Shown here one piece after another: positions 5,157-50,521 of a DNA stretch of 64,000 nucleotides (the stretch's first letter is position 1; every line of letters begins with the position of its first letter). The notes under the pieces are model-generated. The model searched no databases, was not told the origin of the DNA, and saw nothing but the letters and a program-made list of their open reading frames with translations. Position numbers and translations under genes: made by a program. Origin of the DNA: a virus (Duplodnaviria > Caudoviricetes); IMG/VR virus record IMGVR_UViG_3300020576_002828, positions 3,017-67,016 of that record; one strand, written 5' to 3'.

Positions 5157-5411
5157 TTAGTCAGCCACAACCGAATTCGACTTCGGCTTGTTCGTGCTGC
5201 CGACCGGACGGCCACGGCCACGCTTACCCGCTTCGATCATGAACTTGGTTGACTTGGCACTCGGACGGCCACGCGGTGTGGTGATGGTGATCAAATCATC
5301 GGGAATGTTGCGCAGCGTGGCACGAACTTCCTTGAGCTTCGCCAATTCCGTTTCCTTCGTCGCGATGGCGGAATCAAGCGTATTGCGCACGTTCTGGACA
5401 GATGCAGACAT
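5157..5411 (-). CDS. coiled-coil + AT-hook DNA-binding protein (paralog 1)
   Basis: PRGRP and RGRGRPVGSTNKPK motifs, N-terminal heptad helix. Confidence 0.8.
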   Translation of the reverse strand: MSASVQNVRNTLDSAIATKETELAKLKEVRATLRNIPDDLITITTPRGRPSAKSTKFMIEAGKRGRGRPVGSTNKPKSNSVVAD

Positions 5412-5644: not shown

Positions 5645-5672
5645 TTGACTATTGGGCCATAATGTGTATATT
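5645..5672 (+). promoter_or_regulatory. promoter TTGACT-N16-TATATT heading MRxQ cluster 1
   Basis: 32 nt upstream of first MRTQ ORF. Confidence 0.65.
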
Positions 5673-5704
5673 AAAGCATACCCTTTCACCCGTCACCCGA
5701 TATC

Positions 5705-5869
5705 ATGCGAACTCAGCATAAGATCAAGTTGGGCACCACATCACCCACCGGATATACCCGTTTGTTCAATAGTATGTATACCCGATATCACGTGTTATCC
5801 CGTATGGTATTCTGGCGGTTGGATATCCTGTATCGTCGCATACTCCATACCGACTTCATGGTCAAATGA
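5705..5869 (+). CDS. MRxQ micro-protein (MRTQ, 54 aa)
   Basis: hand-translated; first gene after promoter. Confidence 0.8.
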   Translation: MRTQHKIKLGTTSPTGYTRLFNSMYTRYHVLSRMVFWRLDILYRRILHTDFMVK

Positions 5870-6045
5870 GATACCAACGGCAGCATACCTTCGCCTACTT
5901 TGAGCACCCGTTTGATATAGTCGCGTCCAAACCCATGCTGATGAATTTCTGGCAGTTCAACGTAGTGATTAACGCCACCTTTTATGATCTGTTAGAGGCC
6001 ATGCAGTACAATAGCGTCCAACATTACTGGGTAGTCGGTCCATGA
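5866..6045 (+). CDS. MRxQ micro-protein (MRYQ, 59 aa)
   Basis: ATGA overlap. Confidence 0.8.
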   Translation: MRYQRQHTFAYFEHPFDIVASKPMLMNFWQFNVVINATFYDLLEAMQYNSVQHYWVVGP

Positions 6046-6227
6046 GATACCAAGAGAATATCACGTTACCCCCCAGTAGCACCATAGTACAGGCCATTAT
6101 GTGGTATTATAGTAATGGTAAACGGTATATGTATGATCTGTACGTCGGTCCACAAACCACTCTACATATAGCGATATTCATTACCTTTGTAAGTAAGGCA
6201 TACCTCCGGCCCTATAGCGGATCATAG
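6042..6227 (+). CDS. MRxQ micro-protein (MRYQ, 61 aa)
   Basis: ATGA overlap. Confidence 0.8.
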   Translation: MRYQENITLPPSSTIVQAIMWYYSNGKRYMYDLYVGPQTTLHIAIFITFVSKAYLRPYSGS

Positions 6228-6421
6228 TAGTAGGCAATACCCATAGTAGTCGATTTCGCATAGTAGATATCGCCTATATCGCATAGTGGCCGATCATAGT
6301 AGCCAATATATGCATAGTAGGGGATCATAGTAGTCGTTCTTGCCATAGTAGACCGATCATAGTAGCTTTACCATAGGCTATCTGTCATAGTGGCAACAAC
6401 ATAACACCCTTTTCATAGTGG
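6223..6421. repeat. CATAGT(A/G)G short-repeat tract, 11 copies
   Basis: copies at 6223, 6242, 6259, 6282, 6295, 6313, 6326, 6344, 6358, 6386, 6414. Confidence 0.9.
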
Positions 6422-6435
6422 GCGGATCATAGGCC

Positions 6436-6621
6436 ATGCGTAGTCAAGTAAACATAGAAGACGATATCATTACTACTCAGTATATTCTTCGTAGTCGCAT
6501 CATGAAGAATAGATTCTGTAACGCGATACGAATTGATTTGTTGCATACACTTAACGGTTTGGATATCAGCCTTGAAGATATCCTTGATACCATAAGCGAA
6601 GAACATAGGCACCATGCGTAG
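6436..6621 (+). CDS. MRxQ micro-protein (MRSQ, 61 aa)
   Basis: ends HA*, 8-nt overlap with next. Confidence 0.8.
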   Translation: MRSQVNIEDDIITTQYILRSRIMKNRFCNAIRIDLLHTLNGLDISLEDILDTISEEHRHHA

Positions 6622-6781
6622 TCAAGAGATCATAGCGATGCGATATACCGTAGAGCCTACCATAACACGGGCATGTCAAGATAGATCGCGTTTTCTATTT
6701 ATACATACCCCGTGGATAGATGATCAAAATACACTACATAGGATGGCACGCGATCTTGTATGGATTGTATATGGCCTATAG
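6614..6781 (+). CDS. MRxQ micro-protein (MRSQ, 55 aa)
   Basis: paralog of 6812-6982. Confidence 0.8.
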   Translation: MRSQEIIAMRYTVEPTITRACQDRSRFLFIHTPWIDDQNTLHRMARDLVWIVYGL

Positions 6782-6811
6782 TGGCATCTTCATAGTGGAG
6801 GCATCATAGCC

Positions 6812-6982
6812 ATGCGTAGTCAGGTTAGCATAGCGATCTACCCATACACAGGGATGAAACTATCAGGACTGTGTATGGGTAGATCGCCTTTTTTATTTAT
6901 GCATATCCCATGGATAGATCCTGATGATAGTCTATATTGGGTAGCACGAGGTCTAGAATGGGATATAGAGATGTCGTCATAG
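6812..6982 (+). CDS. MRxQ micro-protein (MRSQ, 56 aa)
   Basis: GGAGG RBS; paralog of 6614-6781. Confidence 0.8.
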   Translation: MRSQVSIAIYPYTGMKLSGLCMGRSPFLFMHIPWIDPDDSLYWVARGLEWDIEMSS

Positions 6983-7069
6983 TGTCATCTTCATAGCCAT
7001 TTTTACCGTAGTTGGAAGCCCATAGTGGCAACATCATAGCGCCATCTTCATAGTGAGGGCATCATACCC

Positions 7070-7264
7070 ATGCGGCAACAACACGATATTGGCTACCCAA
7101 CATGTTTTACGCAACATATTTGGAATCTGGCGTCTAAACATCCAGATTTCCATGGGTCAGCCTTCCAGAAATTATACAATCAACGACACATTAATGATCT
7201 GTTTGACCGTATAAACATCCCCATCAACGTCATCCATACTATTGATGATGCGATCTCCCTTTAA
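7070..7264 (+). CDS. MRxQ micro-protein (MRQQ, 64 aa)
   Basis: GAGG RBS. Confidence 0.8.
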   Translation: MRQQHDIGYPTCFTQHIWNLASKHPDFHGSAFQKLYNQRHINDLFDRINIPINVIHTIDDAISL

Positions 7265-7358
7265 GGATGGGGATGGTGAGGCATGGTCGCAAGTAACAAT
7301 CCAAAGAAGATCACACATAATACAATAGGCATACCCATACTCCATAAAAAGGGAATGC

Positions 7359-7544
7359 CTATAAATAGTATTTTTTACTCATAATAACACGGGAAATACC
7401 CACATGCATCTCCCACATGATATTAAACCGTACAGTGGGGCGATGCTGTCGTATGGTCCGTCGTGTGATCAACTTAATACTCTTATACAGCATATCTTCG
7501 AAAAGGTCACCAATAGCGAACGGATATGTGATCTGTTTACGCAT
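7359..7544 (-). CDS. MRxQ micro-protein (MRKQ, 61 aa)
   Basis: ATGCGTAA overlap. Confidence 0.8.
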   Translation of the reverse strand: MRKQITYPFAIGDLFEDMLYKSIKLITRRTIRQHRPTVRFNIMWEMHVGISRVIMSKKYYL

Positions 7545-7704
7545 GAGAGTATGGAATACCGGTAACGAGTCGCAACATCATCAATGCATCCAGCGTATCT
7601 GACCATAAGACTCGCTTTTTATCTGCCTCTGAAATCGAATAATATATCACGTTCTCATATCCATTCCCAACTCCGATCTTCTTACTGACATATTGTTTAC
7701 GCAT
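7537..7704 (-). CDS. MRxQ micro-protein (MRKQ, 55 aa)
   Basis: ATGCGTAA overlap. Confidence 0.8.
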   Translation of the reverse strand: MRKQYVSKKIGVGNGYENVIYYSISEADKKRVLWSDTLDALMMLRLVTGIPYSHA

Positions 7705-7879
7705 GATAGGGTGTCTCCGAATAGTCACGTCCATATACCGTACGTCGATCTACATGACCGAATACCTTATTTGCTATTATGCGATGAACCGATTGTTGTA
7801 AGACCGTGAGTGAAATGAAAAGACGTCCCTCAACGTCCCCATATATCCCTAAGTCTTTATTATATCGCTGTTTACGCAT
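7697..7879 (-). CDS. MRxQ micro-protein (MRKQ, 60 aa)
   Basis: paralog of 8207-8389. Confidence 0.8.
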   Translation of the reverse strand: MRKQRYNKDLGIYGDVEGRLFISLTVLQQSVHRIIANKVFGHVDRRTVYGRDYSETPYHA

Positions 7880-8036
7880 GAGTAATACACCAGCGGTAGA
7901 TAGTTTCGTTGGCATTCCCACTCATTAAGTTAAACCGCATAAACGGGATAGACAAGACATCCGCTACCTGATGCCAGATTTCATGTTCTTGAGGCGACAT
8001 GAACTGATGCACCATACGGAATCGCTGTTTACGCAT
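7872..8036 (-). CDS. MRxQ micro-protein (MRKQ, 54 aa)
   Basis: ATGCGTAA overlap. Confidence 0.8.
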   Translation of the reverse strand: MRKQRFRMVHQFMSPQEHEIWHQVADVLSIPFMRFNLMSGNANETIYRWCITHA

Positions 8037-8214
8037 GCTGACGTTGAACGAGGTATGCGATAGTATACACGTCGAACATAGTATCACGAAGATACCCAAA
8101 CACACGGTCTACGGCACATAATTGCGCTTTCGGTGTTTGGACATTTACACGATGATAGGTGTCTTTTTCGTATCTGGAGAGGATGCCGAGTTTATGGTAT
8201 GCTTGTTTACGCAT
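8029..8214 (-). CDS. MRxQ micro-protein (MRKQ, 61 aa)
   Basis: ATGCGTAA overlap. Confidence 0.8.
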   Translation of the reverse strand: MRKQAYHKLGILSRYEKDTYHRVNVQTPKAQLCAVDRVFGYLRDTMFDVYTIAYLVQRQHA

Positions 8215-8389
8215 TGAAGACGGCCCGTTCATAGCGTCGTCCATATACTATGTGTTGATCTACGTAGCCGAATACGAAATTGGCCATCGTCCGTACATTC
8301 GATGGATTAAATGGGGTGAGCGAACCGAAAATACGATGTTCCATGTCTCCATATATCCCCATTGTGGTGTTCTTATGTTGTTTACGCAT
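8207..8389 (-). CDS. MRxQ micro-protein (MRKQ, 60 aa)
   Basis: paralog of 7697-7879. Confidence 0.8.
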   Translation of the reverse strand: MRKQHKNTTMGIYGDMEHRIFGSLTPFNPSNVRTMANFVFGYVDQHIVYGRRYERAVFNA

Positions 8390-8564
8390 GTTTCCCCATC
8401 GCATGATAGTAATCTCGTCCGTCTGTGGTGGTGAATGCAATTTTTGAATGTACTTCATCTGCCCACTTCCGTAGTTTGCGTTGCGGGTGTGCATGGATTG
8501 ATATAAAAATAGACGCTTCCTTGGGTGAATATATGCCAAATTTGACGAAATACTGTTTCTGCAT
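8382..8564 (-). CDS. MRxQ micro-protein (MQKQ, 60 aa)
   Basis: first gene of cluster; shares GIY and GRxY with neighbours. Confidence 0.8.
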   Translation of the reverse strand: MQKQYFVKFGIYSPKEASIFISIHAHPQRKLRKWADEVHSKIAFTTTDGRDYYHAMGKHA

Positions 8565-8626
8565 ATAGGGGGAGGGGTATCCGCGTGTGGTCTATCTGAG
8601 TGTGACAAAATATTCGGGAAATATAA

Positions 8627-8686
8627 TCGGTCAAAAAGTCCACCGATTCGGTCAAAAAGTCCACCGATTCGGTCAAAAAGTCCACC
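8627..8686. repeat. 21-bp tandem repeat TCGGTCAAAAAGTCCACCGAT x ~2.9
   Basis: exact copies 8627, 8648, 8669 (partial); further TCGGTCAAAA near 8715. Confidence 0.95.
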
Positions 8687-8733
8687 TAAAAACCCCTATT
8701 TTCTGGTATACATCGGTCAAAATGACTGACCTA

Positions 8734-8952
8734 TCAAGTTAGCGTGACACGATGTGGGAGGAAGGAGTCAACATGCGCTCGCACAACACGCGTCACTTCC
8801 ATATACAAGGTATCAGAAAAGACCCCTTGGATCGGGTAATTGCACACGAGGGTGGTACTATCTACGAACACCACATTCACGGCATGGTGGCATCGATGGG
8901 TTTTCTCAAAGGCGTCCATGATACCAAGAAGATGTTGTCGTTGTTTTCTCAT
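8734..8952 (-). CDS. MRxQ micro-protein (MRKQ, 72 aa)
   Basis: ATGA overlap; paralog of 9077-9295. Confidence 0.8.
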   Translation of the reverse strand: MRKQRQHLLGIMDAFEKTHRCHHAVNVVFVDSTTLVCNYPIQGVFSDTLYMEVTRVVRAHVDSFLPHRVTLT

Positions 8953-9080
8953 GAGTGACGTATATACCGATGTACTGCCGCAAAGATTCGAAAGGATTGA
9001 TACAACGTCCACCAGAAAGTATATCCTCTAGGTACTATATACTCAATGGCGTAATACAACACAGGAGTTTGTTTTCTCAT
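8949..9080 (-). CDS. MRxQ micro-protein (MRKQ, 43 aa)
   Basis: ATGA overlaps at both ends. Confidence 0.75.
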   Translation of the reverse strand: MRKQTPVLYYAIEYIVPRGYTFWWTLYQSFRIFAAVHRYIRHS

Positions 9081-9295
9081 GGAAGACCCCCACGCAGTAC
9101 GCCCACGAGGTAGCTACGCATCCCTCGAATCACCCCGGCATATAACTCATCATAAAACGTCATCGGAATAGGGCGTGTACACCGAAGTTGAAAGGTCGCG
9201 ACATTAGAATATGCAACATTCACGCTGTGCCGAAGCCGATGCTGCCATTCCATGTATTCCATAAAGCCCATCTGATGTGCGGATTGTTTTCTCAT
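9077..9295 (-). CDS. MRxQ micro-protein (MRKQ, 72 aa)
   Basis: paralog of 8734-8952. Confidence 0.8.
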   Translation of the reverse strand: MRKQSAHQMGFMEYMEWQHRLRHSVNVAYSNVATFQLRCTRPIPMTFYDELYAGVIRGMRSYLVGVLRGGLP

Positions 9296-9414
9296 GACCG
9301 GAGGGTGGTATGGAGTGCGAGTTGGAGTATAAGACAAATATACTCCAAATGGTTCCGTGTACAGAAGAACGGTGTCGGCAATAATGGGATATGGCGGATG
9401 GTCTGGTAGGTCAT
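9292..9414 (-). CDS. MRxQ-family micro-protein (MTYQ, 40 aa)
   Basis: ATGA overlaps at both ends. Confidence 0.7.
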   Translation of the reverse strand: MTYQTIRHIPLLPTPFFCTRNHLEYICLILQLALHTTLRS

Positions 9415-9587
9415 GGTAGTACTAATCCCTTCCACAGCGCATGTTGCAGGGTAGGAAAGAAATATGGACCAAGTCGCCAACTCCGAGATAGCCGGTCCCA
9501 GAGCTTCCGATGCCATGAAGTAGACGTAATCTCATCACCAGACAGGAAGAACACCACATACCGAGGGTGATACTTCTGTTTTCTCAT
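9411..9587 (-). CDS. MRxQ micro-protein (MRKQ, 58 aa)
   Basis: ATGA overlaps. Confidence 0.8.
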   Translation of the reverse strand: MRKQKYHPRYVVFFLSGDEITSTSWHRKLWDRLSRSWRLGPYFFPTLQHALWKGLVLP

Positions 9588-9748
9588 GAGCGGATCACCC
9601 CGAACAGCCGGTGATTTTCTGAAAAGAGCAAGAAGGTGGGATGGGTATAATGTAACCTATACCATAGATGGGTCAACCCATTTGGTGTGAGTGTGACCGC
9701 ACGATGAAAGCGATAAGGATGATGGATGGCGAGGGTTTGGTGTCTCAT
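9584..9748 (-). CDS. MRxQ micro-protein (MRHQTLAI, 54 aa)
   Basis: ATGA overlaps. Confidence 0.8.
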   Translation of the reverse strand: MRHQTLAIHHPYRFHRAVTLTPNGLTHLWYRLHYTHPTFLLFSENHRLFGVIRS

Positions 9749-9909
9749 GAAAAAATATCGTAGATGGCCCACCGCAGATCGGTTATATAGGTATCACTCT
9801 GTTGCAATACACTAGAAAAACAGATCTTATTCCAGACATTGCGGTGAAACTGCGTCGGGGAGATGATCGCAAATGTACTATGACGGATGGCAAGGGTTTG
9901 GTGTCTCAT
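9745..9909 (-). CDS. MRxQ micro-protein (MRHQTLAI, 54 aa)
   Basis: ATGA overlaps. Confidence 0.8.
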   Translation of the reverse strand: MRHQTLAIRHSTFAIISPTQFHRNVWNKICFSSVLQQSDTYITDLRWAIYDIFS

Positions 9910-10070
9910 GAGCCTATAGGTCGCTGCATCCCATACATGACAGTCCGATGGGTACCGAACCATAATTGATAAAAGATCTTATCCCAGATCAGACGATGAT
10001 ATGACGTAGGGGTGATCTGAGCACAATCTGTTAAGGTACGACGACGGATAGTAAGGGTTTGCCGTCTCAT
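9906..10070 (-). CDS. MRxQ micro-protein (MRRQTLTI, 54 aa)
   Basis: ATGA overlap downstream. Confidence 0.8.
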   Translation of the reverse strand: MRRQTLTIRRRTLTDCAQITPTSYHRLIWDKIFYQLWFGTHRTVMYGMQRPIGS

Positions 10071-10178
10071 GATAAAAGAGGGGTGGTGATCCGAGTAATC
10101 AGCCGCCAGAGTTCCCATTTTTGCATGGTTGCATCTGACCGGTTCCACTTCTGATAAAAGAACCGTTTACGATCTCAT
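10067..10178 (-). pseudogene. broken array unit (ATG AGA TCG TAA at junction; orphan open frame)
   Basis: junction ATG followed by TAA at the Gln4 position; frame of the upstream gene stays open past its TGA to the next ATGA junction. Confidence 0.55.
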
Positions 10179-10336
10179 TTGGGGAAGACCGTCCAATAAA
10201 AATCGACAAAGATCCGAAACTGAGGAACTTTCAGTTGGAACGCGTATCGGACGTATGGGTTATCGTCGGGGAGTATCGGAAGGTATGGAGATATCATACA
10301 CCGTCTAATCCATGGATTTTGGGTTTGTCGTCTCAT
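10175..10336 (-). CDS. MRxQ micro-protein (MRRQ, 53 aa)
   Basis: ATGA overlap. Confidence 0.75.
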   Translation of the reverse strand: MRRQTQNPWIRRCMISPYLPILPDDNPYVRYAFQLKVPQFRIFVDFYWTVFPK

Positions 10337-10485
10337 AGGACAAAGACATAGTTATGGACGCTCCATCGAAACATAACGATCTCTGTAAAGAAACGCAAAT
10401 ACGCCGGATAGTATGCAGACCACACGGCTGGAAACTTGGTGGTGGTAGGTAGGGACCGGTCGAAACAGATGCGTTGCTGTCTCAT
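10333..10485 (-). CDS. MRxQ micro-protein (MRQQ, 50 aa)
   Basis: ATGA overlaps. Confidence 0.8.
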   Translation of the reverse strand: MRQQRICFDRSLPTTTKFPAVWSAYYPAYLRFFTEIVMFRWSVHNYVFVL

Positions 10486-10646
10486 GTGAAGAACAACGTA
10501 TGTGTGATACCGTCACGAGCCATCACCGTAATCGTCATAAGGCGTCTATATATTGCGAATCGACGTTGATGATGTTGCACCAACTGAGAGAGGGTTTGGT
10601 TCAGGTGGGTATACATCAAATATCGACGATTGGTTTGCTGTCTCAT
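10482..10646 (-). CDS. MRxQ micro-protein (MRQQ, 54 aa)
   Basis: ATGA overlaps. Confidence 0.8.
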   Translation of the reverse strand: MRQQTNRRYLMYTHLNQTLSQLVQHHQRRFAIYRRLMTITVMARDGITHTLFFT

Positions 10647-10810
10647 CGGTTGTGTAGATCGACAATATGACTCCACAATATCTCAAACCGTAACACCGCA
10701 AAAAATCTCCATAGCAGGTTATTGGTGGTATACCGGTAAAATGCGGAGTTTTCTGGTATGTCGGCGATGAGATGTTGCCGACGACTGATGGCAAGCGTTT
10801 GGTGTCTCAT
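10643..10810 (-). CDS. MRxQ micro-protein (MRHQTLAI, 55 aa)
   Basis: ATGA overlaps. Confidence 0.8.
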   Translation of the reverse strand: MRHQTLAISRRQHLIADIPENSAFYRYTTNNLLWRFFAVLRFEILWSHIVDLHNR

Positions 10811-10959
10811 GAGAAGTGACGAACTTGAATGATCCACCACAAGATATTCCGAAGCCCACTGAATTGCCCGATGATATTGGGGGTAGTGAGATTGAACCAC
10901 CAATAAAACTCGTTGGGGTGGTGTCGGGCGTTAAGAATATTGAAACGTTGATGTCTCAT
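10807..10959 (-). CDS. MRxQ micro-protein (MRHQ, 50 aa)
   Basis: ATGA overlaps. Confidence 0.8.
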   Translation of the reverse strand: MRHQRFNILNARHHPNEFYWWFNLTTPNIIGQFSGLRNILWWIIQVRHFS

Positions 10960-11120
10960 CGGAATGTACTCTTAGCAACGAACTGACCAGACTCTTTGAC
11001 ATACCATATGAGAAGTTTAACCCGAAAGAGGGCATGGCATAATGTCTGGTACATATACCACTGAGGGGTAGACGCGGTGTTACAGTAGCCGACTTCAATC
11101 CGAAGAGTCTGCTGTCTCAT
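10956..11120 (-). CDS. MRxQ micro-protein (MRQQ, 54 aa)
   Basis: ATGA overlaps. Confidence 0.8.
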   Translation of the reverse strand: MRQQTLRIEVGYCNTASTPQWYMYQTLCHALFRVKLLIWYVKESGQFVAKSTFR

Positions 11121-11269
11121 GGTCGTCGGATAACGCGTCGGAGGGTGACCCGCATTCGCCACTGTTGCATGATGCCGGGATGATACCAATCCCCGATCAC
11201 ATCATAGAACGGTATCCAGACGATGCCGGTGAGAATCGGTTTGAGGGTGTAAAGCTGTTGTAGACGCAT
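11117..11269 (-). CDS. MRxQ micro-protein (MRLQ, 50 aa)
   Basis: start lies inside upstream ORF whose junction stop is lost. Confidence 0.75.
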   Translation of the reverse strand: MRLQQLYTLKPILTGIVWIPFYDVIGDWYHPGIMQQWRMRVTLRRVIRRP

Positions 11270-11423
11270 TAGTAATACTAACCCACCCCGCATCCCATCG
11301 CAAGGCACCCATGAGTTGACCGATGGGAGTTGTGTATACGATTCGTGCGTAATTAACAATATGTTCTAATATACCATCGGTTTCGAAATGCGTCCGAATT
11401 GGACATCGATGTTGGTGTCTCAT
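11202..11423 (-). CDS. MRxQ micro-protein (MRHQ, 73 aa, C-terminally extended)
   Basis: reads through junction ...TNA-S. Confidence 0.75.
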   Translation of the reverse strand: MRHQHRCPIRTHFETDGILEHIVNYARIVYTTPIGQLMGALRWDAGWVSITNASTTALHPQTDSHRHRLDTVL

Positions 11424-11593
11424 GAAAATAGTTCGACAAACATACTTCCACAGATATCATTAATCTCGTCTGGGCGGAATGCGTTATAAATGTGACTGCG
11501 TATCTCGGAGGGGACCGACAGCCAAATCGCATCCCAGTTGGCATACATCGGTTTATGGCGAAGCGCGGTATATAGAGAGCGTTGCTGTCTCAT
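11420..11593 (-). CDS. MRxQ micro-protein (MRQQ, 57 aa)
   Basis: ATGA overlaps. Confidence 0.8.
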   Translation of the reverse strand: MRQQRSLYTALRHKPMYANWDAIWLSVPSEIRSHIYNAFRPDEINDICGSMFVELFS

Positions 11594-11778
11594 GGGCGGC
11601 GTACTATAGTATCTGTGATGGCGCGAGAGACATCAACTCGCACAACGGACTTCACACTTTTGAGTGCCAACAGCGGATTGGTGATGGTATATACGTCAGA
11701 GCGCCAACCGATGGTGGTCTTCCGGTGTATGCTCACCCAGTTAGGACGGTATACCTGCACATAATGTTGGTGTCTCAT
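11590..11778 (-). CDS. MRxQ micro-protein (MRHQ, 62 aa)
   Basis: ATGA overlaps. Confidence 0.8.
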   Translation of the reverse strand: MRHQHYVQVYRPNWVSIHRKTTIGWRSDVYTITNPLLALKSVKSVVRVDVSRAITDTIVRRP

Positions 11779-11954
11779 AGTTCGATCCATATACGCATCG
11801 CAGCGCCCATAGAATGTATTGAGATACGTTTAAACGCAAACAGTGGTTCTAGTATGACGTACATATCATATCGTATTGAACTATGGGTGGCACATCGAAT
11901 GCAATCCCATATTGATTCGGTTGTGTATACGCTAATTCGACGTTGGTGTCTCAT
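11775..11954 (-). CDS. MRxQ micro-protein (MRHQ, 59 aa)
   Basis: ATGA overlaps. Confidence 0.8.
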   Translation of the reverse strand: MRHQRRISVYTTESIWDCIRCATHSSIRYDMYVILEPLFAFKRISIHSMGAAMRIWIEL

Positions 11955-12112
11955 CGATGCACACTCTGCCATAGTGCTGCCGTGACCCCTACTTCCACAA
12001 GATCATCCGTCGTACGATAGATGGCTACGCGCACTTCCAGTTCACTATAGGCTTTTATCTGTCGCCATAATGAAGGAGATGCACCCACTGAACTGATCGA
12101 TTGGCGTCTCAT
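11951..12112 (-). CDS. MRxQ micro-protein (MRRQ, 53 aa)
   Basis: ATGA overlaps. Confidence 0.8.
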   Translation of the reverse strand: MRRQSISSVGASPSLWRQIKAYSELEVRVAIYRTTDDLVEVGVTAALWQSVHR

Positions 12113-12258
12113 CGGAAAATACGCTCCCATGAAATATTATCGTGGGATAAATCGGGTATGCGGATGATGGGCTGACGCATAATGACCTTCCAGTATCGAA
12201 TGCGAAGATGCACTAGATAATACTGTCGTACGGTGCGAATACACGATTGATGTCTCAT
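12109..12258 (-). CDS. MRxQ micro-protein (MRHQ, 49 aa)
   Basis: ATGA overlaps. Confidence 0.8.
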   Translation of the reverse strand: MRHQSCIRTVRQYYLVHLRIRYWKVIMRQPIIRIPDLSHDNISWERIFR

Positions 12259-12431
12259 GTGGACGGGCGATGAGTATAGGTCTGTAACGTAAAGATGATG
12301 GTGATAATCGATCCACATGTGCGTTGAACGCCAACGGCGATGCGGTGGGCGACATATGTATCGACAGGAATCATCTCACGACAGTGTAATTCTGTCCAGA
12401 GGATGGTGCGGTTGACGGGTTGGCGTCTCAT
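12255..12431 (-). CDS. MRxQ micro-protein (MRRQ, 58 aa)
   Basis: ATGA overlaps. Confidence 0.8.
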   Translation of the reverse strand: MRRQPVNRTILWTELHCREMIPVDTYVAHRIAVGVQRTCGSIITIIFTLQTYTHRPST

Positions 12432-12619
12432 TTAGACCACCACCGGTATAGGGACGTGAGCTTCCCACGGAGCGTATTGATGTGTATCTGGATCGGATGC
12501 TGCACACCATAGTATGCACGGTTACGTAATCGGTAAGCAACCCGACGAGACACCGGCATCATACTATCGCGGTAAATGTTGATGAAGATGTCTTCCCAGA
12601 CGTTGTGTTGTTTGCGCAT
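12428..12619 (-). CDS. MRxQ micro-protein (MRKQ, 63 aa)
   Basis: 28-nt gap upstream, ATGA overlap downstream. Confidence 0.8.
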   Translation of the reverse strand: MRKQHNVWEDIFINIYRDSMMPVSRRVAYRLRNRAYYGVQHPIQIHINTLRGKLTSLYRWWSK

Positions 12620-12647
12620 CCCTGAAACCTAACCCGTACCCGATGAA

Positions 12648-12842
12648 TCACAAGATGGGAATCGTGATCCGGTGTCTAATCTCGTTGGTGGGTGGGAGGC
12701 GAGTGTGAAAATAACGAGTAATCTTCCGGCGATATACAACTAGTGGATGATTCCATATGGTATACGGAAAATCCACACCAGCATACACTCTACCCCGCAC
12801 CCTACCAGAAACCCGTTCAGACAGATTCTGTTGTTTAGTCAT
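12648..12842 (-). CDS. MRxQ-family micro-protein (MTKQ, 64 aa)
   Basis: ATGACTAA overlap. Confidence 0.75.
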   Translation of the reverse strand: MTKQQNLSERVSGRVRGRVYAGVDFPYTIWNHPLVVYRRKITRYFHTRLPPTNEIRHRITIPIL

Positions 12843-13017
12843 ATGACCCAAAGTGAGCGATCCAGTCAGGTGTTGGATACCGTGAAATGGAAACAATGAA
12901 TACTGCTTTCCACGGATAATTCCACGCGAGACTATATATGTCAGCGTCTCTATTGTATATACGTGCCCGCATCTGATCTTTTATATAACTGATGGGGATA
13001 TTCGTCTGGTTACGCAT
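12835..13017 (-). CDS. MRxQ micro-protein (MRNQ, 60 aa)
   Basis: ATGCGTAA overlap. Confidence 0.8.
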   Translation of the reverse strand: MRNQTNIPISYIKDQMRARIYNRDADIYSLAWNYPWKAVFIVSISRYPTPDWIAHFGSYD

Positions 13018-13189
13018 AATAACGGTACATGAGTTGATAATAACCTCGCACGCGTGTCAACATCAGCGTGATAGGACGTGTCTTGGCATCGACGCGATGA
13101 TCAATAGCTCTGATAAATGGTACCCGACTATCCTTGGTAAACAACGGAATAGCTGGTGTGATGTTACTGATGGCGGTTTGAACGCGCAT
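13010..13189 (-). CDS. MRxQ micro-protein (MRVQ, 59 aa)
   Basis: start inside upstream ORF whose junction stop is lost. Confidence 0.75.
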   Translation of the reverse strand: MRVQTAISNITPAIPLFTKDSRVPFIRAIDHRVDAKTRPITLMLTRVRGYYQLMYRYYA

Positions 13190-13325
13190 AGTCTTCAACG
13201 AGATATCGGAAAATCCAGTACCGATGGGAAAACAGGTTGTTTACCAATGGCTGAGGTACACGGTATTGCACTATTGAAAACAACCGCCGAGTGCTAATAC
13301 CAGACACATACTGTTGGTTACGCAT
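13164..13325 (-). CDS. MRxQ micro-protein (MRNQ, 53 aa)
   Basis: reads through junction ...DYA-R. Confidence 0.75.
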   Translation of the reverse strand: MRNQQYVSGISTRRLFSIVQYRVPQPLVNNLFSHRYWIFRYLVEDYARSNRHQ

Positions 13326-13515
13326 AAAACTTGGCCATCACGTCGATTTTAATGTCCATCAACGATACCACGAAGCGACCGAGTGGCAGCTTTATCTTTA
13401 GTTGTTCCACACCAGCCAAGAATATCGTCACGTCGCGTGGGAATCTGGAATCGGTGATGGAATAGAATGATGGCCGCATCGTTCCTACTGATCGACAGAG
13501 GGCCTGTTTACACAT
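13318..13515 (-). CDS. MRxQ-family micro-protein (MCKQ, 65 aa)
   Basis: ATGTGTAA overlap. Confidence 0.75.
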   Translation of the reverse strand: MCKQALCRSVGTMRPSFYSITDSRFPRDVTIFLAGVEQLKIKLPLGRFVVSLMDIKIDVMAKFYA

Positions 13516-13714
13516 CCGGATCACCCATCCAACTCCAAAAATGAACCCACAGAGGGCGTAGAACCGTATTCCATGTATCATCCCAAATCGGTTCGTCCAC
13601 ATCGGCACTGATTTTACACCATATCAGTTCAGTCGTCTGACTATATGCCCGATCTTGAATAGCGAGAAGGAAACGCGTCGACTGATTAAATTTCCGGAGT
13701 CGTTGGTTACGCAC
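13508..13714 (-). CDS. MRxQ micro-protein (GTG start, RNQ, 68 aa)
   Basis: GTGCGTAA overlap. Confidence 0.75.
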   Translation of the reverse strand: MRNQRLRKFNQSTRFLLAIQDRAYSQTTELIWCKISADVDEPIWDDTWNTVLRPLWVHFWSWMGDPDV

Positions 13715-13913
13715 GAGTAGATATGGGGATGGACCGACAGTATGAAATTAAATCGGCGTCGAAAATATTACTGACGTATAACTGCAGAGAACGATTGGCC
13801 GGGATGCCGAGGCCAGCGATATACCCGATCAAATATGGTGGGGTGATCCATCGCGGCGAAATACCGCATACTACAGTGTTGCGAGGCCGAAACGCGGTTG
13901 TCTGGGTGCGCAT
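13707..13913 (-). CDS. MRxQ micro-protein (MRTQ, 68 aa)
   Basis: first gene after leftward promoter. Confidence 0.8.
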   Translation of the reverse strand: MRTQTTAFRPRNTVVCGISPRWITPPYLIGYIAGLGIPANRSLQLYVSNIFDADLISYCRSIPISTRA

Positions 13914-13933
13914 GGGATGATGGATAGGTGTCC

Positions 13934-13965
13934 TTGACAATACTCCAATACTTCGTAGATTGCAA
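13934..13965. promoter_or_regulatory. overlapping divergent promoters: TTGACA-N16-TAGATT (+) and TTGCAA-N17-TATTGT (-)
   Basis: + hexamers 13934-39 and 13956-61; - hexamers 13965-60 and 13942-37. Confidence 0.65.
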
Positions 13966-14007
13966 GAGTGGACCAGTAGGTGCATTCACCTCTTTCTTTT
14001 TCATACC

Positions 14008-14586
14008 ATGGATACGATCAACGAACTACTCTCTACCGTGGATAAGCAGATTGCCCAAGGCACTGCTGAACTGGCGATACTGAAAACGGCCAAACGCCAG
14101 TTGGACGCCATTCCATCCGATGGACCCGTCCGTGATACCCCGCCCAAGAAACGTGCGGGTCGACCCAAGGGATCGAAGAATCTGACCCCGGCTGAACGTG
14201 TGAATAAGAAAGCGGCCAAGCCATCATCCACGGGGCGTCCAAAGGGTCGACCGAAGGGATCGAAAAATCTGACCCCGGCTGAACGGGAAGCCCGCAAGTT
14301 GGCGAAGAAGGCGGGATCGATGGTGTCAGCCGCTACATCATCGGATGTCGAGTTGGCCGAAGTCAGTGCACCCGTTGAACCGTCGCCCATCATCGATCAG
14401 TCCGCACCGGTAGTAGAATCTGCCGCACCATCCAGCCCATGGTCCCCGCCATCGGATGCCGTGGTTGAAACGCCGTATGCACCGGAAGTGGTCGACGAAG
14501 AAGCCCCGTCTGCCCCTATGTATATGGAACAGCCGACCGCAGGATTCCAGAGCAAGGAAGATCTGTTGAACGCTTCGCAGCAGTAG
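14008..14586 (+). CDS. coiled-coil + AT-hook DNA-binding protein (paralog 2) with Pro/Ala/acidic tail
   Basis: two GRPKGSKNLTPAER repeats plus GRPK; N-terminal helix like 5157-5411. Confidence 0.8.
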   Translation: MDTINELLSTVDKQIAQGTAELAILKTAKRQLDAIPSDGPVRDTPPKKRAGRPKGSKNLTPAERVNKKAAKPSSTGRPKGRPKGSKNLTPAEREARKLAKKAGSMVSAATSSDVELAEVSAPVEPSPIIDQSAPVVESAAPSSPWSPPSDAVVETPYAPEVVDEEAPSAPMYMEQPTAGFQSKEDLLNASQQ

Positions 14587-14599
14587 GGGTCACGTAGAT

Positions 14600-14626
14600 A
14601 TGGGCATGGAGAATAACCGTGCCCAT
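14600..14626 (+). other. hairpin between AT-hook gene and tRNA
   Basis: ATGGGCATGG-N7-CCGTGCCCAT. Confidence 0.5.
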
Positions 14627-14632
14627 TCTATT

Positions 14633-14706
14633 GGTCTGGTAGCTTAGTCGGTTAAAGCGCCTGACTCATAATCAGGGGATCGTGGGTTCAAGTCCCACCC
14701 AGACCA
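14633..14706 (+). tRNA. tRNA-CAU (elongator Met or Ile2), CCA not encoded
   Basis: acceptor GGTCTGG/CCAGACC, anticodon arm CCTGA-CTCATAA-TCAGG, T arm GTGGG-TTCAAGT-CCCAC; G1-C72 excludes initiator. Confidence 0.93.
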
Positions 14707-14709
14707 CTT

Positions 14710-14916
14710 ATGCGCACACAAGAGAATCTCTCATTTAGTGTATCGGTACAACCGAACATCGATATATACCAAGCCTACCGCGTAGCAAGTCGTATTCATC
14801 CGGTCGCAGACGTGGCATATGATACATGCATTTCAACCCGAACAGAAAATAGTAAGCTGTCTCGCTGGACACATGAAGTACGGATAGATCTCAAAGAGGC
14901 GTTGTTCGATGCGTAA
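14710..14916 (+). CDS. MRxQ micro-protein (MRTQ, 68 aa)
   Basis: starts 3 nt after tRNA. Confidence 0.8.
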   Translation: MRTQENLSFSVSVQPNIDIYQAYRVASRIHPVADVAYDTCISTRTENSKLSRWTHEVRIDLKEALFDA

Positions 14917-15094
14917 TCAAAAACTTCAAATATACACCATCGAACTTAGACCCCATAGTATATTGACAGACGCGGTTATGCGTCGTCATCCCGGCTTTTG
15001 GACACGTCTGTATAACCAAGCGCCGATTAAACAGACACCGTGGAAGCATTGGGTGTCGGGTATACCGGGATACGACGGAAGCTTTCATGCGTAA
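14909..15094 (+). CDS. MRxQ micro-protein (MRNQ, 61 aa)
   Basis: ATGCGTAA overlap. Confidence 0.8.
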   Translation: MRNQKLQIYTIELRPHSILTDAVMRRHPGFWTRLYNQAPIKQTPWKHWVSGIPGYDGSFHA

Positions 15095-15263
15095 ACAGAT
15101 CTTACTATCAGACAATATCGACCTAGAACAGCATACACAATTACATCGTACCTTCGGTCGTATCGCATGGCAGCGTGTAGAAAAACATGCCCCATTCCGT
15201 ACACTCAAATGGGCATCAGCCATGATTGTGCCGATACGATTAAAAGTATTTTTTCATGCGTAG
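15087..15263 (+). CDS. MRxQ micro-protein (MRKQ, 58 aa)
   Basis: ATGCGTAA overlap. Confidence 0.8.
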   Translation: MRKQILLSDNIDLEQHTQLHRTFGRIAWQRVEKHAPFRTLKWASAMIVPIRLKVFFHA

Positions 15264-15489
15264 ACAACTCTCACGAATCTATCGTATAGATGTAAAGTTG
15301 CATATAGAGATCATGAATCAATATTACACTCGCGACAAACAACGGTGGGTGTTGGAACGAAGTGTCGTGTATCGTAGTTCTGACATATACGATCATCCAT
15401 CACAGATTGTGATGCATCGTAGTTCTGACATATACGATGCATCACAGATTGTGATGCCAGTATTATTTTATATTCAACGCCATGCGTAA
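15256..15489 (+). CDS. MRxQ micro-protein (MRRQ, 77 aa, internal duplication)
   Basis: ATGCGTAG overlap. Confidence 0.8.
   Translation: MRRQLSRIYRIDVKLHIEIMNQYYTRDKQRWVLERSVVYRSSDIYDHPSQIVMHRSSDIYDASQIVMPVLFYIQRHA
15371..15458 (+). repeat. in-frame ~45-bp tandem duplication
   Basis: ATCGTAGTTCTGACATATACGAT..CATCACAGATTGTGATGC twice. Confidence 0.9.
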
Positions 15490-15679
15490 ACAAGACCTGT
15501 TGAGCAAGGTGTTGGTGAAACAAATAGAATATGACACCCACAATCAGTTATCCTCACGTGCGAGAGTGACAAGGGGATGGTGGTGGAATAGTTATAGCTA
15601 TATATGTCAACCCGAACGTAGGTTGCGTGAAGTAATGGAAGATCTATACGAACGCTTCTTTTTTGACCACGATGCGTGA
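15482..15679 (+). CDS. MRxQ micro-protein (MRKQ, 65 aa)
   Basis: ATGCGTAA overlap. Confidence 0.8.
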   Translation: MRKQDLLSKVLVKQIEYDTHNQLSSRARVTRGWWWNSYSYICQPERRLREVMEDLYERFFFDHDA

Positions 15680-15848
15680 ACAGCGATCCGTTATTCAGCT
15701 TACCCGACTGCTACGAATTCGGTATTATATCCCAACAGTAATGCACTATAAGGGAAGTAAACGGATGTTGCAAAAATATCTACGGGTGGCCGATGTGCTG
15801 CGGAGTTCGAAGTTCTCCATTATAACACACATTATACACGATGTGTAA
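15672..15848 (+). CDS. MRxQ micro-protein (MREQ, 58 aa)
   Basis: ATGCGTGA overlap. Confidence 0.8.
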   Translation: MREQRSVIQLTRLLRIRYYIPTVMHYKGSKRMLQKYLRVADVLRSSKFSIITHIIHDV

Positions 15849-16032
15849 GCAGAGGTCAGTTAAATACCCCGTCGAACACGGAACGCATAATACGTTGATG
15901 ACTGAATATAGTATGCATGATCCAAAACATCGTCTTGAACGTGCGGTGGCGGATCGTATGGAGTATGACGTGCCCGCTGTTAACAACAGTGTGATAGTTA
16001 TGCTCCACTTAGAGGCGTATCCTCTTGCGTGA
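15841..16032 (+). CDS. MRxQ-family micro-protein (MCKQ, 63 aa)
   Basis: ATGTGTAA overlap. Confidence 0.8.
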   Translation: MCKQRSVKYPVEHGTHNTLMTEYSMHDPKHRLERAVADRMEYDVPAVNNSVIVMLHLEAYPLA

Positions 16033-16201
16033 ACAACAGCTACTCACCTATCCCATCGAACACGTTACCCATAGAACGTTGTGTAATATCTATTATACAC
16101 GTGATCCAAAAGCGTTGATAGAATCGTATATACTGACGTACATGGATAACGGGGGAGATTTGCGTTCCCTTGCAGCGATAGCCTTTGATATGGTGAAGTG
16201 A
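16025..16201 (+). CDS. MRxQ micro-protein (TTG start, REQ, 58 aa)
   Basis: TTGCGTGA overlap; homologous to both neighbours. Confidence 0.75.
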   Translation: MREQQLLTYPIEHVTHRTLCNIYYTRDPKALIESYILTYMDNGGDLRSLAAIAFDMVK

Positions 16202-16374
16202 TGCGTAAACAAATACTACTTACACATCCCGTCGTATACAAAACGCACCATATCTTGTATACGGCATATACCAAATGTGATCCGGAATACAAGTTGCGCA
16301 TCTATATGATGACGGATCGAATATTTACAATCGGCAGTGCGATTCATTCGTTTACGAATTTAATCCATGCGTAA
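16201..16374 (+). CDS. MRxQ micro-protein (MRKQ, 57 aa)
   Basis: TGATG overlap. Confidence 0.8.
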   Translation: MRKQILLTHPVVYKTHHILYTAYTKCDPEYKLRIYMMTDRIFTIGSAIHSFTNLIHA

Positions 16375-16552
16375 CCAACACGTTATAACACAAGGGGTGG
16401 ATATCACTCTGCATAACAAAGGGTTTGATGCATTTTGTACTAAATATGAAAACGCATTTATTCTCTTACACCGTTTATACGATCACGACATATATCACTT
16501 GCGAGATACAACCATTGAAGTAGAAGAATTCATATACGACCTCTATGCATAA
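16367..16552 (+). CDS. MRxQ micro-protein (MRNQ, 61 aa)
   Basis: ATGCGTAA overlap. Confidence 0.8.
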   Translation: MRNQHVITQGVDITLHNKGFDAFCTKYENAFILLHRLYDHDIYHLRDTTIEVEEFIYDLYA

Positions 16553-16745
16553 ACAAACATCTCTACAACGTGACGTGGTACTCATGACACATATGAAGCT
16601 ATATGGAAATCATCAAATCTATATGACTCCTGATATGTGGTCATACCTCAAAACTGTGGTCATATCACGTCAACCGGCGCATGCTCTGTTAGGACGGAGT
16701 GAGGTAAAAACACACATATCTGCGCAAGCTCCGTCGCCCATGTAA
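16545..16745 (+). CDS. MRxQ-family micro-protein (MHKQ, 66 aa)
   Basis: ATGCATAA overlap. Confidence 0.75.
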   Translation: MHKQTSLQRDVVLMTHMKLYGNHQIYMTPDMWSYLKTVVISRQPAHALLGRSEVKTHISAQAPSPM

Positions 16746-49691: not shown

Positions 49692-49960
49692 TAATGTTTG
49701 GGATAAAGTACGAACTCCGATGCTTTGAAGTTACCATCAACAAACTTGATATATACCGTGCCGTTGATTGCGCCGAATTCAGATTTTACATTCACCAAGA
49801 ATTCGTTGGATGGAAGTATTTTATTCAAGTGAAGGTGCACCGCTTCCCGAATACTTACTGGATCTAACTTATCGGTCTTATCCAATGTCGCCAGATGATC
49901 ATATACCGCACCTAACACATACTCTTTCACATTGAATTTCATAGGGAGTGGCATTATCAA
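49691..49960 (-). CDS. hypothetical protein
   Basis: coupled ORF. Confidence 0.65.
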   Translation of the reverse strand: MIMPLPMKFNVKEYVLGAVYDHLATLDKTDKLDPVSIREAVHLHLNKILPSNEFLVNVKSEFGAINGTVYIKFVDGNFKASEFVLYPKH

Positions 49961-50292
49961 TAACTCGGAAGAATGCCATATTGTGCAGCTTCTTCGGGCG
50001 AGATCTTAATAGTTTGTACGACCGACTTTTCTTCTAATTGGGTATCCATATCAAGTTCTCGGATATCACAGTAATGCATTTCTTTGATATAATTCTCTTC
50101 GGTCAACTGAATCGTAGGCATTACCGTTAATATACGAAACGACTTGAATTTAGATCGCTGGACCGATTCGTATAATGTCTTATGCTTTTCGATTAGCTCT
50201 GGGATCTTTTCAGGATCGATGCATGCTAACGAAATAGGTAACGAAATGTTGTTCTCAAATTCAAACATCATCTTATAGATTTGCTGTCTCAT
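49957..50292 (-). CDS. hypothetical protein, probable start MRQQ
   Basis: ATGAGACAGCAA 20 nt after upstream stop. Confidence 0.6.
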   Translation of the reverse strand: MRQQIYKMMFEFENNISLPISLACIDPEKIPELIEKHKTLYESVQRSKFKSFRILTVMPTIQLTEENYIKEMHYCDIRELDMDTQLEEKSVVQTIKISPEEAAQYGILPSY

Positions 50293-50311
50293 ACTAATAC
50301 CGGTAATAAAG

Positions 50312-50521
50312 TTAAAGATCGTTCCATCTATACCATGTGTATTCAATACCATATTGCAACTCACATTGATCTTTTGGAATATCTAGTTGTTGACGATAAT
50401 CAAAAAACCACGTTGCAATAAAATGGGTGTCTGTTTCGCCCACAATACTATAGAATGCATTAAAACTAGCACTTGGTTCACTAGCATGATGCAACAAACT
50501 TTCGCGACGAATAAAGCTCAC
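50312..50521 (-). CDS. hypothetical protein
   Basis: ATGA-coupled. Confidence 0.55.
   Translation of the reverse strand: MSFIRRESLLHHASEPSASFNAFYSIVGETDTHFIATWFFDYRQQLDIPKDQCELQYGIEYTWYRWNDL

Follow-up and report, generated by a model that had tools for sequence, protein, structure and literature searches.

Between positions 5705 and 16745 of a 64,000-nucleotide stretch of viral DNA (Caudoviricetes; hereafter the window, bases 3017-67016 of the 67,016-bp IMG/VR virus record IMGVR_UViG_3300020576_002828), 55 short open reading frames (ORFs) are chained into four same-strand blocks, and all of them begin with the tetrapeptide Met-Arg-x-Gln (MRxQ) or a close variant of it, followed by bodies that are for the most part unrelated to one another. 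The ORFs carry a coding signal and behave as genes, their common start is conserved at the level of the peptide, and their products are orphans among the proteins searched. From these observations we infer how the array may be expressed (coupled translation, early timing) and what its products may do (an effector role, with the common start as a tag), and we give roughly even odds (about 0.5) to an overall reading in which the array represents four operons of coupled, tagged, early effector-like micro-genes.

An earlier examination of the same DNA, made from the letters without database searches (the sequence-only reading), had described 55 ORFs of 40-77 amino acids in four clusters (7 on the plus strand, 7 and 30 on the minus strand, 11 on the plus strand). 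The ORF listing used here returned the same set at the same coordinates, with lengths of 40-77 amino acids (mean 58.9, standard deviation 6.9), arranged in blocks of 7, 7, 30 and 11 ORFs:

5705..7264, + strand: block 1, seven MRxQ micro-genes (at 5705, 5866, 6042, 6436, 6614, 6812 and 7070)
7359..8564, - strand: block 2, seven micro-genes, every junction an 8-base overlap; family MRKQ-x5-G-[IF]-x4-E
8734..13913, - strand: block 3, 30 micro-genes
14710..16745, + strand: block 4, 11 micro-genes; family MRxQ-x4-Y-x-[IV]-[ED]-x3-H

The ORFs occupy 86% of positions 5705-16745, the remainder being an AT-hook gene, a tRNA and gaps, and at approximately 9.5 kb the array makes up approximately 14% of the 67-kb fragment. 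Gln4 is found in 55 of 55 ORFs (encoded by CAA in 40 and CAG in 15) and Arg2 in 49 of 55, with two Cys, two Thr, one His and one Gln as the exceptions; both counts are those of the sequence-only reading, as is the impression that almost every start overlaps the previous stop. Among the 51 in-block junctions, 44 are stop/start overlaps of 1, 4 or 8 bases: 22 are four-base overlaps (ATGA), 21 are eight-base overlaps (ATGNNT plus RR), in which the upstream stop consists of the T of CGT and the next two bases, and one is a 1-base overlap. Of the other seven junctions, two are overlaps of greater length (26 and 68 nt) and five are gaps, which measure 28-208 nt. Block 3 is organized as a core with AGA as the Arg2 codon and ATGA junctions, with edges that use CGN, and it contains four units spaced exactly 161 nt apart (10070-9587). 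Stop-loss variants were seen at two places, where the units at 11202-11423 and 13164-13325 extend 68 and 26 nt, respectively, into the next unit, whose ORF start is retained.

Two ways of reading the chain as something other than a series of separate cistrons were rejected. A single long protein made by frameshifting would need alternating +1/-1 shifts, and every junction has its own ATG; an alternative genetic code was discarded because successive ORFs lie in different frames.

Coding signal of the micro-genes

The sequence-only reading had argued that such an array does not arise by chance, and 300 first-order Markov simulations of the region bear this out. The simulations yielded 1.2 ATG-Arg-x-Gln motifs per region, and 0.14 that were open for 40-80 codons (maximum 2), while the real region holds 47 exact motifs, of which 47 are open. 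Only three motifs occur in the other 53 kb of the window. The only longer motif ORF outside the array, which begins MRQQIYKM (49957-50364, - strand; 111 amino acids from the ATG at 50292), sits within a glycosyltransferase block and may be a chance occurrence.

The coding test ignored stop codons, so that openness could not help, and ranked the annotated frame of each ORF among the six possible frames. The annotated frame came top in 32 of 55 ORFs when scored with a codon table of the phage's long genes, and in 40 of 55 with a leave-one-out codon table of the micro-genes themselves; the controls gave 167 of 185 for same-size chunks of long genes and 0 of 188 for spurious ORFs inside long genes. 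Amino acid composition is also non-random: Cys stands at 1.1% compared to 3.3% expected for random sequence, with Ser and Leu lowered too, and Trp, Tyr, His and Ile exceed the values for random sequence as well as those for ordinary proteins (long genes). Overall, R, H, Y, W, M, Q and I are raised and E, G, K, D and N are lowered, consistent with the earlier description of the bodies as rich in R/H/Y/W/I. Additionally, publicly available gene calls cover at least 11 of the 55 ORFs, nine of them with exactly the MRxQ start. Taken together, codon usage, Cys depletion, the residues conserved within subfamilies and the public gene calls show the ORFs behaving as genes, and we consider it very probable that all 55 are real genes.

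The encoded proteins are approximately 7 kDa in size and mostly basic (median isoelectric point 9.8, with 40 of 55 above 9). Seven small subfamilies, comprising 18 proteins, are detectable, and 37 proteins are singletons, in line with the earlier remark that the bodies mostly do not align. The MRKQ-x5-G-[IF]-x4-E family has nine members in blocks 2 and 3, in which Glu17 is invariant (9 of 9), and in block 4 His16 is present in 10 of 11 members within the context Y-x-[IV]-[ED]-x3-H. AlphaFold2 models the eleven block-4 paralogues as a helical hairpin (predicted local distance difference test, pLDDT, 77). Local runs of paralogues represent in-register tandem duplication, and synonymous divergence (dS) between paralogues is mostly above 1; the array thus looks like an old tandem-duplication family whose divergence is saturated. 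The sequence-only reading had proposed a selected repertoire of hypervariable proteins, and part of this holds, in that the units are real and selected and share a start kept at the peptide level, but there is no sign of active hypervariation or of a 'library', the divergence being saturated.

A contrary explanation is that the products have no function at all, the frames being open only for ribosomes to travel, such that travelling ribosomes protect a long early transcript or soak up host factors, or the array being a decaying or non-coding repeat. A composition that is half random-like would be expected in this case, as would the 37 of 55 bodies that are unrelated to anything, each other included, and the low folding and recognition scores obtained for part of the family. 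Yet a decaying repeat would have gained stops, and 47 of 47 frames are open; Cys depletion, aromatic enrichment, phage-like codon usage, subfamily residues and the peptide-level Arg2 and Gln4 all indicate selection on a polypeptide. Nor does the array resemble a structured RNA: apart from the tRNA, no Rfam family is represented, save for two below-threshold matches at chance level. We therefore regard an array without functional products as very improbable. In the Rfam search, only the tRNA at 14633-14707 reached the gathering score, and at E-values up to 1 the further matches were an antisense echo of this tRNA and two mir-5583 matches far below the gathering score; units of a tRNA-like or other Rfam RNA type were rejected, as no family besides tRNA matched.

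Conservation of the MRxQ start

An information profile around the starts shows that conservation is limited to 12 bases, ATG-(C/A)G(T/A)-NAN-CA(A/G), plus a weak preference for C at -1. Part of this motif is fixed by dual coding, as base 4 in ATGA junctions and bases 6-8 in eight-base junctions belong to the upstream stop; dual coding in turn accounts for the frequent C-termini of the form ...H-A or ...x-A and ...S in the upstream proteins. Five Arg2 codons are used (CGT, CGC, CGA, CGG and AGA); AGG is rare across the whole phage. All 22 ATGA-type starts write Arg2 as AGA, where every ANN codon would fit, and the eight-base type writes it as CGT, where every NNT codon would do. Where no overlapping stop fixes the codon, Arg2 is CGA, CGC or CGG, as in the block leaders 5705, 13913 and 14710 and in 7070, 12619 and 13189. 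Approximately 30 ordinary genes of the phage share both junction types, and these begin with MT, MK, MI, MN, MS, MYK, MCK or MAK, never with MRxQ; the motif is therefore neither a result of coupling nor a requirement for it in this host. Given the synonymous variation at Arg2 and the motif-free ordinary coupled genes, MRxQ is most likely a feature of the peptide rather than a coupling signal, and selection on it probably acts on the peptide.

The conserved N-terminus continues weakly past residue 4, with T, R or H at position 5 and hydrophobic residues at positions 6-7; within the tetrapeptide, position 3 carries a basic or polar residue. Residues 1-8 are nearly free of acidic residues, with a single E or D at position 3, 5, 6 or 8 in a few members. 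In one group, beginning MRHQTLAI.., ten residues are common before the bodies become unrelated. Signal peptides were rejected as an explanation of the common start, as no hydrophobic core follows the basic start.

Alternatively, the motif might be a translation signal, in which the RNA, the first codons or the nascent tetrapeptide are needed for initiation or reinitiation without a Shine-Dalgarno (SD) element and the bodies matter little. An SD-like element lies upstream of only 4 of 46 coupled starts (background 4.7%) and in none of the four block leaders, while AGAGGA-like SD elements are often found at the ordinary operon-first genes of this phage, several of which have one. A/C-rich sequence just after the AUG is reported to help SD-less and leaderless translation, which would fit a role of this kind. 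The explanation nevertheless seems quite improbable to us, as the roughly 30 ordinary genes are coupled by the same ATGA and eight-base overlaps without MRxQ, and AGA and CGN would not be equivalent to an RNA signal. In addition, start regions show no clear lack of structure relative to the interiors of ORFs (0.48 vs 0.44 unpaired, p 0.09). Finally, GGAGG or GAGGG lies at a fitting distance from 2 of the 5 starts that follow a gap: three block 1 genes are preceded by gaps, two of these gaps carry one of these SD-like elements, and all three starts keep MRxQ even so.

It is also conceivable that the 12 bases (ATG-MGN-NAN-CAR plus the overlapping stop) are kept mainly as DNA, as a recombination joint for the duplication, loss and exchange of units, with MRxQ as the mere translation of the joint; the analogue would be the PeSL-mediated shuffling of ORFan cassettes, for which there is precedent in T4-type phages (PMC2839356). 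The four units at exact 161-nt spacing and the in-register runs of paralogues are what such a joint would produce, and junction DNA is identical in many neighbours (CATGCGTAAACA in 6 of 7 block-2 starts). Against this, 4-5 of the 12 bases in the motif are degenerate, its third codon varies widely, and a joint leaves unexplained why five Arg2 codons are used, with synonymous variation wherever the sequence is free; moreover, twelve bases are short for homologous recombination. We consider a DNA-level joint improbable, and selection on the peptide remains the preferred reading of the start.

Operon heads, neighbouring genes and source phage

The heads of the four blocks and the genes adjoining them contain the following features:

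5645..5672, + strand: predicted sigma-70-like promoter of block 1, TTGACT-16-TATATT; 33 nt upstream of the first ORF; best site of the region
8634-8607, - strand: promoter-like site of block 2, TTGACC-16-TATTTT
8627-8689: three tandem 21-bp direct repeats (+ strand sequence TCGGTCAAAAAGTCCACCGAT), covering the block 2 promoter-like site and extending upstream of it
13937..13965, - strand: candidate promoter of block 3, TTGCAA-17-TATTGT; identified by eye, a weaker site, absent from the scan list
5157..5411, - strand: AT-hook protein 1, head-to-head with block 1; paralogue of AT-hook protein 2
5511-5484, - strand: predicted promoter of AT-hook protein 1, TTGACA-16-TAGATT, with the same hexamers as that of AT-hook protein 2
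14008..14586, + strand: AT-hook protein 2, with a coiled-coil N-terminus, GRPKGSKN repeats and a conserved acidic tail
13934-13961, + strand: predicted promoter of AT-hook protein 2, TTGACA-16-TAGATT
14633..14707, + strand: tRNA with anticodon CAU, classed as elongator or Ile2, with a G1-C72 pair and without a GGG/CCC anticodon stem

The leaders of the four blocks are all rich in C, represented by CACCCGTCACCC, CCCCTCCCCC, CCATCATCCC and the 3' end of the tRNA (5680-5704, 8565-8600, 13914-13930 and 14690-14709, respectively), and that of block 3 is approximately 17 nt long. Each block is probably one transcript, given that promoter-like sites within the blocks are at chance level. The 21-bp repeats at the head of block 2 each carry TTGACC on the minus strand and look like an operator or iteron. 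The tRNA(CAU) ends 2 nt ahead of the first ATG of block 4, such that its processing would give a nearly leaderless block 4 mRNA; a hairpin lies upstream of it at approximately 14600-14626. A role for this tRNA as an initiator was ruled out by its G1-C72 pair.

The gene for AT-hook protein 2 stands head-to-head with block 3, with the tRNA and block 4 downstream of it; the protein is 32% identical to AT-hook protein 1 (E 4e-6). It has relatives on other metagenome contigs, with 99% (P0003, on the JGI contig of 14,230 bp), 84% (P0004, on an NCBI contig of 1,290 bp) and 79% (P0005, on a JGI contig of 47,015 bp) identity, and sister phages therefore exist. The final approximately 40 residues of AT-hook protein 2 are identical in relatives that are 79-85% identical overall, which suggests that the tail may be a conserved docking peptide.

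Several repeats lie within the blocks. The three gaps of block 1 (window positions 6223-7028, + strand) contain thirteen copies of CATAGTRG, each with TAG TAG, and the window as a whole contains 20 copies compared to 3.1 expected; a protein-binding array and a stop-rich spacer are candidate roles. The ORF at 6812-6982 includes a perfect hairpin with 19-nt arms (6833-6887). The ORF at 15256-15489 includes a 24-nt inverted repeat and a 31-nt direct repeat whose copies lie 45 nt apart (15363-15456), resulting in an internal SSDIYD...SQIVM duplication in its protein.

The source record is estimated to be 31% complete (CheckV). Elsewhere in the window, a GP88-family protein has its top match, at approximately 50% identity, in the Xanthomonas jumbo phage XacN1, and a clamp-loader-like ATPase has matches of approximately 30% identity among T4-type phages. 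Other larger genes encode NAMPT and a thymidylate-kinase-like protein, a ThyX-like protein was identified by eye from its sequence, and the window also carries a long sugar/glycosyltransferase block. No close genome was found among 50,697 phage records, either with the 12.5-kb region (megablast) or with three neighbouring proteins (tblastn). Together with the gene content, the lack of a close phage record indicates that the source is a piece of a large, distant, uncultured phage. No structural genes are present in the 67-kb record, at its 31% completeness.

Relatives, known systems and possible roles

None of the 55 micro-proteins matches Pfam and only one matches PHROGs, in a lone weak match at E 0.005, so the absence of recognisable domains noted at the outset was upheld, and the collapse into one known Pfam family that the sequence-only reading had set against its own proposal did not occur. 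Neither the 12.5-kb region (megablast) nor two of the micro-proteins (tblastn) matched the same 50,697 phage records. When the block-2 family and the first block-4 protein were compared with 5.8 billion proteins in a word-indexed search, only the window's own proteins came back; the first block-4 protein recurs solely on a near-identical 14,230-bp contig, which is weak evidence that fits fast turnover of micro-genes. In a full HMMER scan of 1.84 billion cluster representatives, the block-4 profile found only the window's own 9 proteins, and the block-2 profile found nothing in phage XacN1, the phage with the top match to the neighbouring GP88-like gene. The ESM Atlas gave no usable match, and Foldseek comparisons of the block-4 model with BFVD and PDB returned nothing. 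Two flanking proteins and P0005 had no match in IMG/VR, and P0004 had none among GTDB genomes.

DNA scans of IMG/VR for motif pairs and triples returned chance matches and short in-frame or tandem repeats, with no chain of different ORFs, and a motif scan of JGI metagenomes contained no such chain among the matches listed; the scans require exactly this motif and spacing, so that absence is not proven. A look-up based on shared sequence words brought up no look-alike of this stretch among other scanned sequences. Two metagenome contigs that at first sight resemble the array, L098 (Ga0209390_10228208) and L107 (Ga0056124_1081733), were rejected as similar arrays, being near-identical 150-165-bp tandem satellites that happen to read as chained MRxQ ORFs and that any motif search for such arrays has to filter out.

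To our knowledge, nothing published matches the array in combining 55 cistrons with chains as long as 30 and with one invariant tetrapeptide at the start of otherwise unrelated bodies. The sequence-only reading had said that no described system has this form, which stands for the combination; it does not stand for the ingredients, each of which has published neighbours in small orphan early genes (T4-type ORFan regions), N-terminal targeting peptides (internal proteins) and overlap coupling. Termination-reinitiation at overlapping gene pairs is reportedly described in the work of Huber et al. from 2019 and 2023. The likeness lies in same-strand four-base ATGA and eight-base overlaps with a dispensable downstream SD element, and overlaps of these kinds are those found in the array; the difference is that termination-reinitiation was described for pairs or short runs, often encoding subunits of one complex, whereas the array has 7-30 cistrons for unrelated small proteins.

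A second neighbour is found in the hyperplastic regions of T4-type phages, where ORFan PeSL cassettes form separate transcription units, each with a promoter and a stem-loop terminator (Arbiol et al. 2010, PMC2839356). The array resembles these regions as what would be a long run of small non-essential orphan early genes with sigma-70-like promoters in a large phage, with turnover by local duplication or recombination. It differs in being almost without intergenic DNA, in having one promoter for up to 30 cistrons, and in units that are chained by overlapping stops and starts and have a common N-terminal motif. A promoter and a terminator for each gene, as in PeSL cassettes, are not found: 44 of 51 junctions overlap, and promoter-like and terminator-like sites are near expectation (for the latter, 11 in the region vs 8 expected).

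The third comparison concerns the T4 internal proteins (IPI, IPII, IPIII), which carry an N-terminal capsid targeting sequence (CTS) of 10-19 residues ending in an (L/I)xE protease site and for which, as for their relatives, diversification through an arms race against the defences of the host has been proposed (PMC9026906). They too are small basic proteins with unrelated bodies and a short common N-terminal peptide, a feature seen in 49-55 of the 55 array members. There are, however, 3-5 such genes per T4-type genome as opposed to 55 here, and the (L/I)xE site of the CTS is not enriched in the array.

This likeness raises the question of whether the shared N-terminus is a capsid-targeting peptide, through which the micro-proteins, as small basic internal (ejection) proteins, would be packed into the prohead and later ejected together with the DNA, in which case the varied bodies would reflect an arms race with host restriction or defence. 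The resemblance to T4 internal proteins and their polymorphic relatives (PMC9026906) is matched by the MRHQTLAI.. subfamily, with its approximately 10 common N-terminal residues before unrelated bodies. Several observations make capsid targeting improbable nonetheless. [LIV]xE occurs in residues 5-26 of 11% of members compared to 13% (standard deviation 4%) in shuffles, and here the earlier suggestion of a cargo for packaging or processing fails in the form of a T4-type capsid-targeting propeptide. The conserved part is just 4-7 residues long, the sigma-70-like promoters at the operon heads are of an early rather than a late type, and a set of 55 different cargo species would be without precedent. 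The window was found to contain no head, protease or scaffold gene. A broader idea, and one we think unlikely, is that fMet-Arg-x-Gln-... (4-7 residues) constitutes a new minimal sorting or processing tag that would route some fifty unrelated micro-proteins into one pathway, which could be capsid loading for injection, or the action of one enzyme that would destroy them at a set time or modify them. If true, the array would amount to a large effector repertoire that is able to evolve and is addressed through one shared tag.

Our overall reading, to which we assign the even odds given above, can be set out in steps. The 55 genes would be a tandemly expanded family in four coupled polycistrons, whose bodies have diverged past recognition while peptide selection would keep M-R-(basic/polar)-Q-(T/R/H)-hydrophobic-hydrophobic. 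Three blocks would be read from a sigma-70-like promoter and a short C-rich leader without an SD element, and the fourth would be read after an AT-hook gene and a tRNA. Ribosomes would then reach each following cistron through termination-reinitiation at ATGA or ATGCGTAA, as in the approximately 30 ordinary genes; of the mechanistic steps, translational coupling along the chains is one we consider likely. Judging by consensus matches only, the block transcripts may be made by host RNA polymerase, and the products hence early. The products may be a set of effectors whose targets are host components or nucleic acids, and the common N-terminus may serve one step, such as targeting, processing or turnover. 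An early, host-directed effector role is the most probable one, though tentative and at less than even odds. The Arg/aromatic-rich composition would be apt for binding nucleic acids or for sticky binding to proteins, and the adjoining AT-hook genes are a hint of a DNA-related theme.

A number of observations weigh against this reading. The ORFs carry a far fainter coding signal than ordinary genes do: by regression, composition lies approximately half-way between random and ordinary sequence, and G at codon position 1 has a frequency of 0.23 compared to 0.31 in ordinary genes. The ratio of nonsynonymous to synonymous divergence (dN/dS), at 0.3-0.8 in most measurable paralogue pairs, and the larger share of differences at the third codon position (0.58, vs 0.49 and 0.45) do speak for selected genes, but dN/dS is near saturation and the alignments, being protein-made, favour such a result. 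Promoter-like sites number 27 in the whole region compared to 29.5 expected, which leaves position as the sole argument for the promoters at the operon heads. Structure prediction, which the sequence-only reading had proposed, is informative for the block 4 hairpin, but the model of the block-2 family reached only pLDDT 50, and the language-model recognition score is under the level usual for known families. Expression of the array genes, finally, is predicted from the DNA, and any link of the micro-proteins to a target is likewise putative.

Large phages possess many small orphan early genes, whose roles are mostly unknown. The invariant N-terminal signature and the regular layout of the array provide a handle that the usual orphans lack, as a site for mutation, as a search key, and as a way of asking whether the products share a fate in packaging, processing or degradation. 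Should the tag mark a common pathway, the array would offer approximately 55 small natural binders or effectors for screening against host targets of defence or takeover; if it marks none, the array would still be a clean natural case of termination-reinitiation chains of 7 to 30 cistrons.

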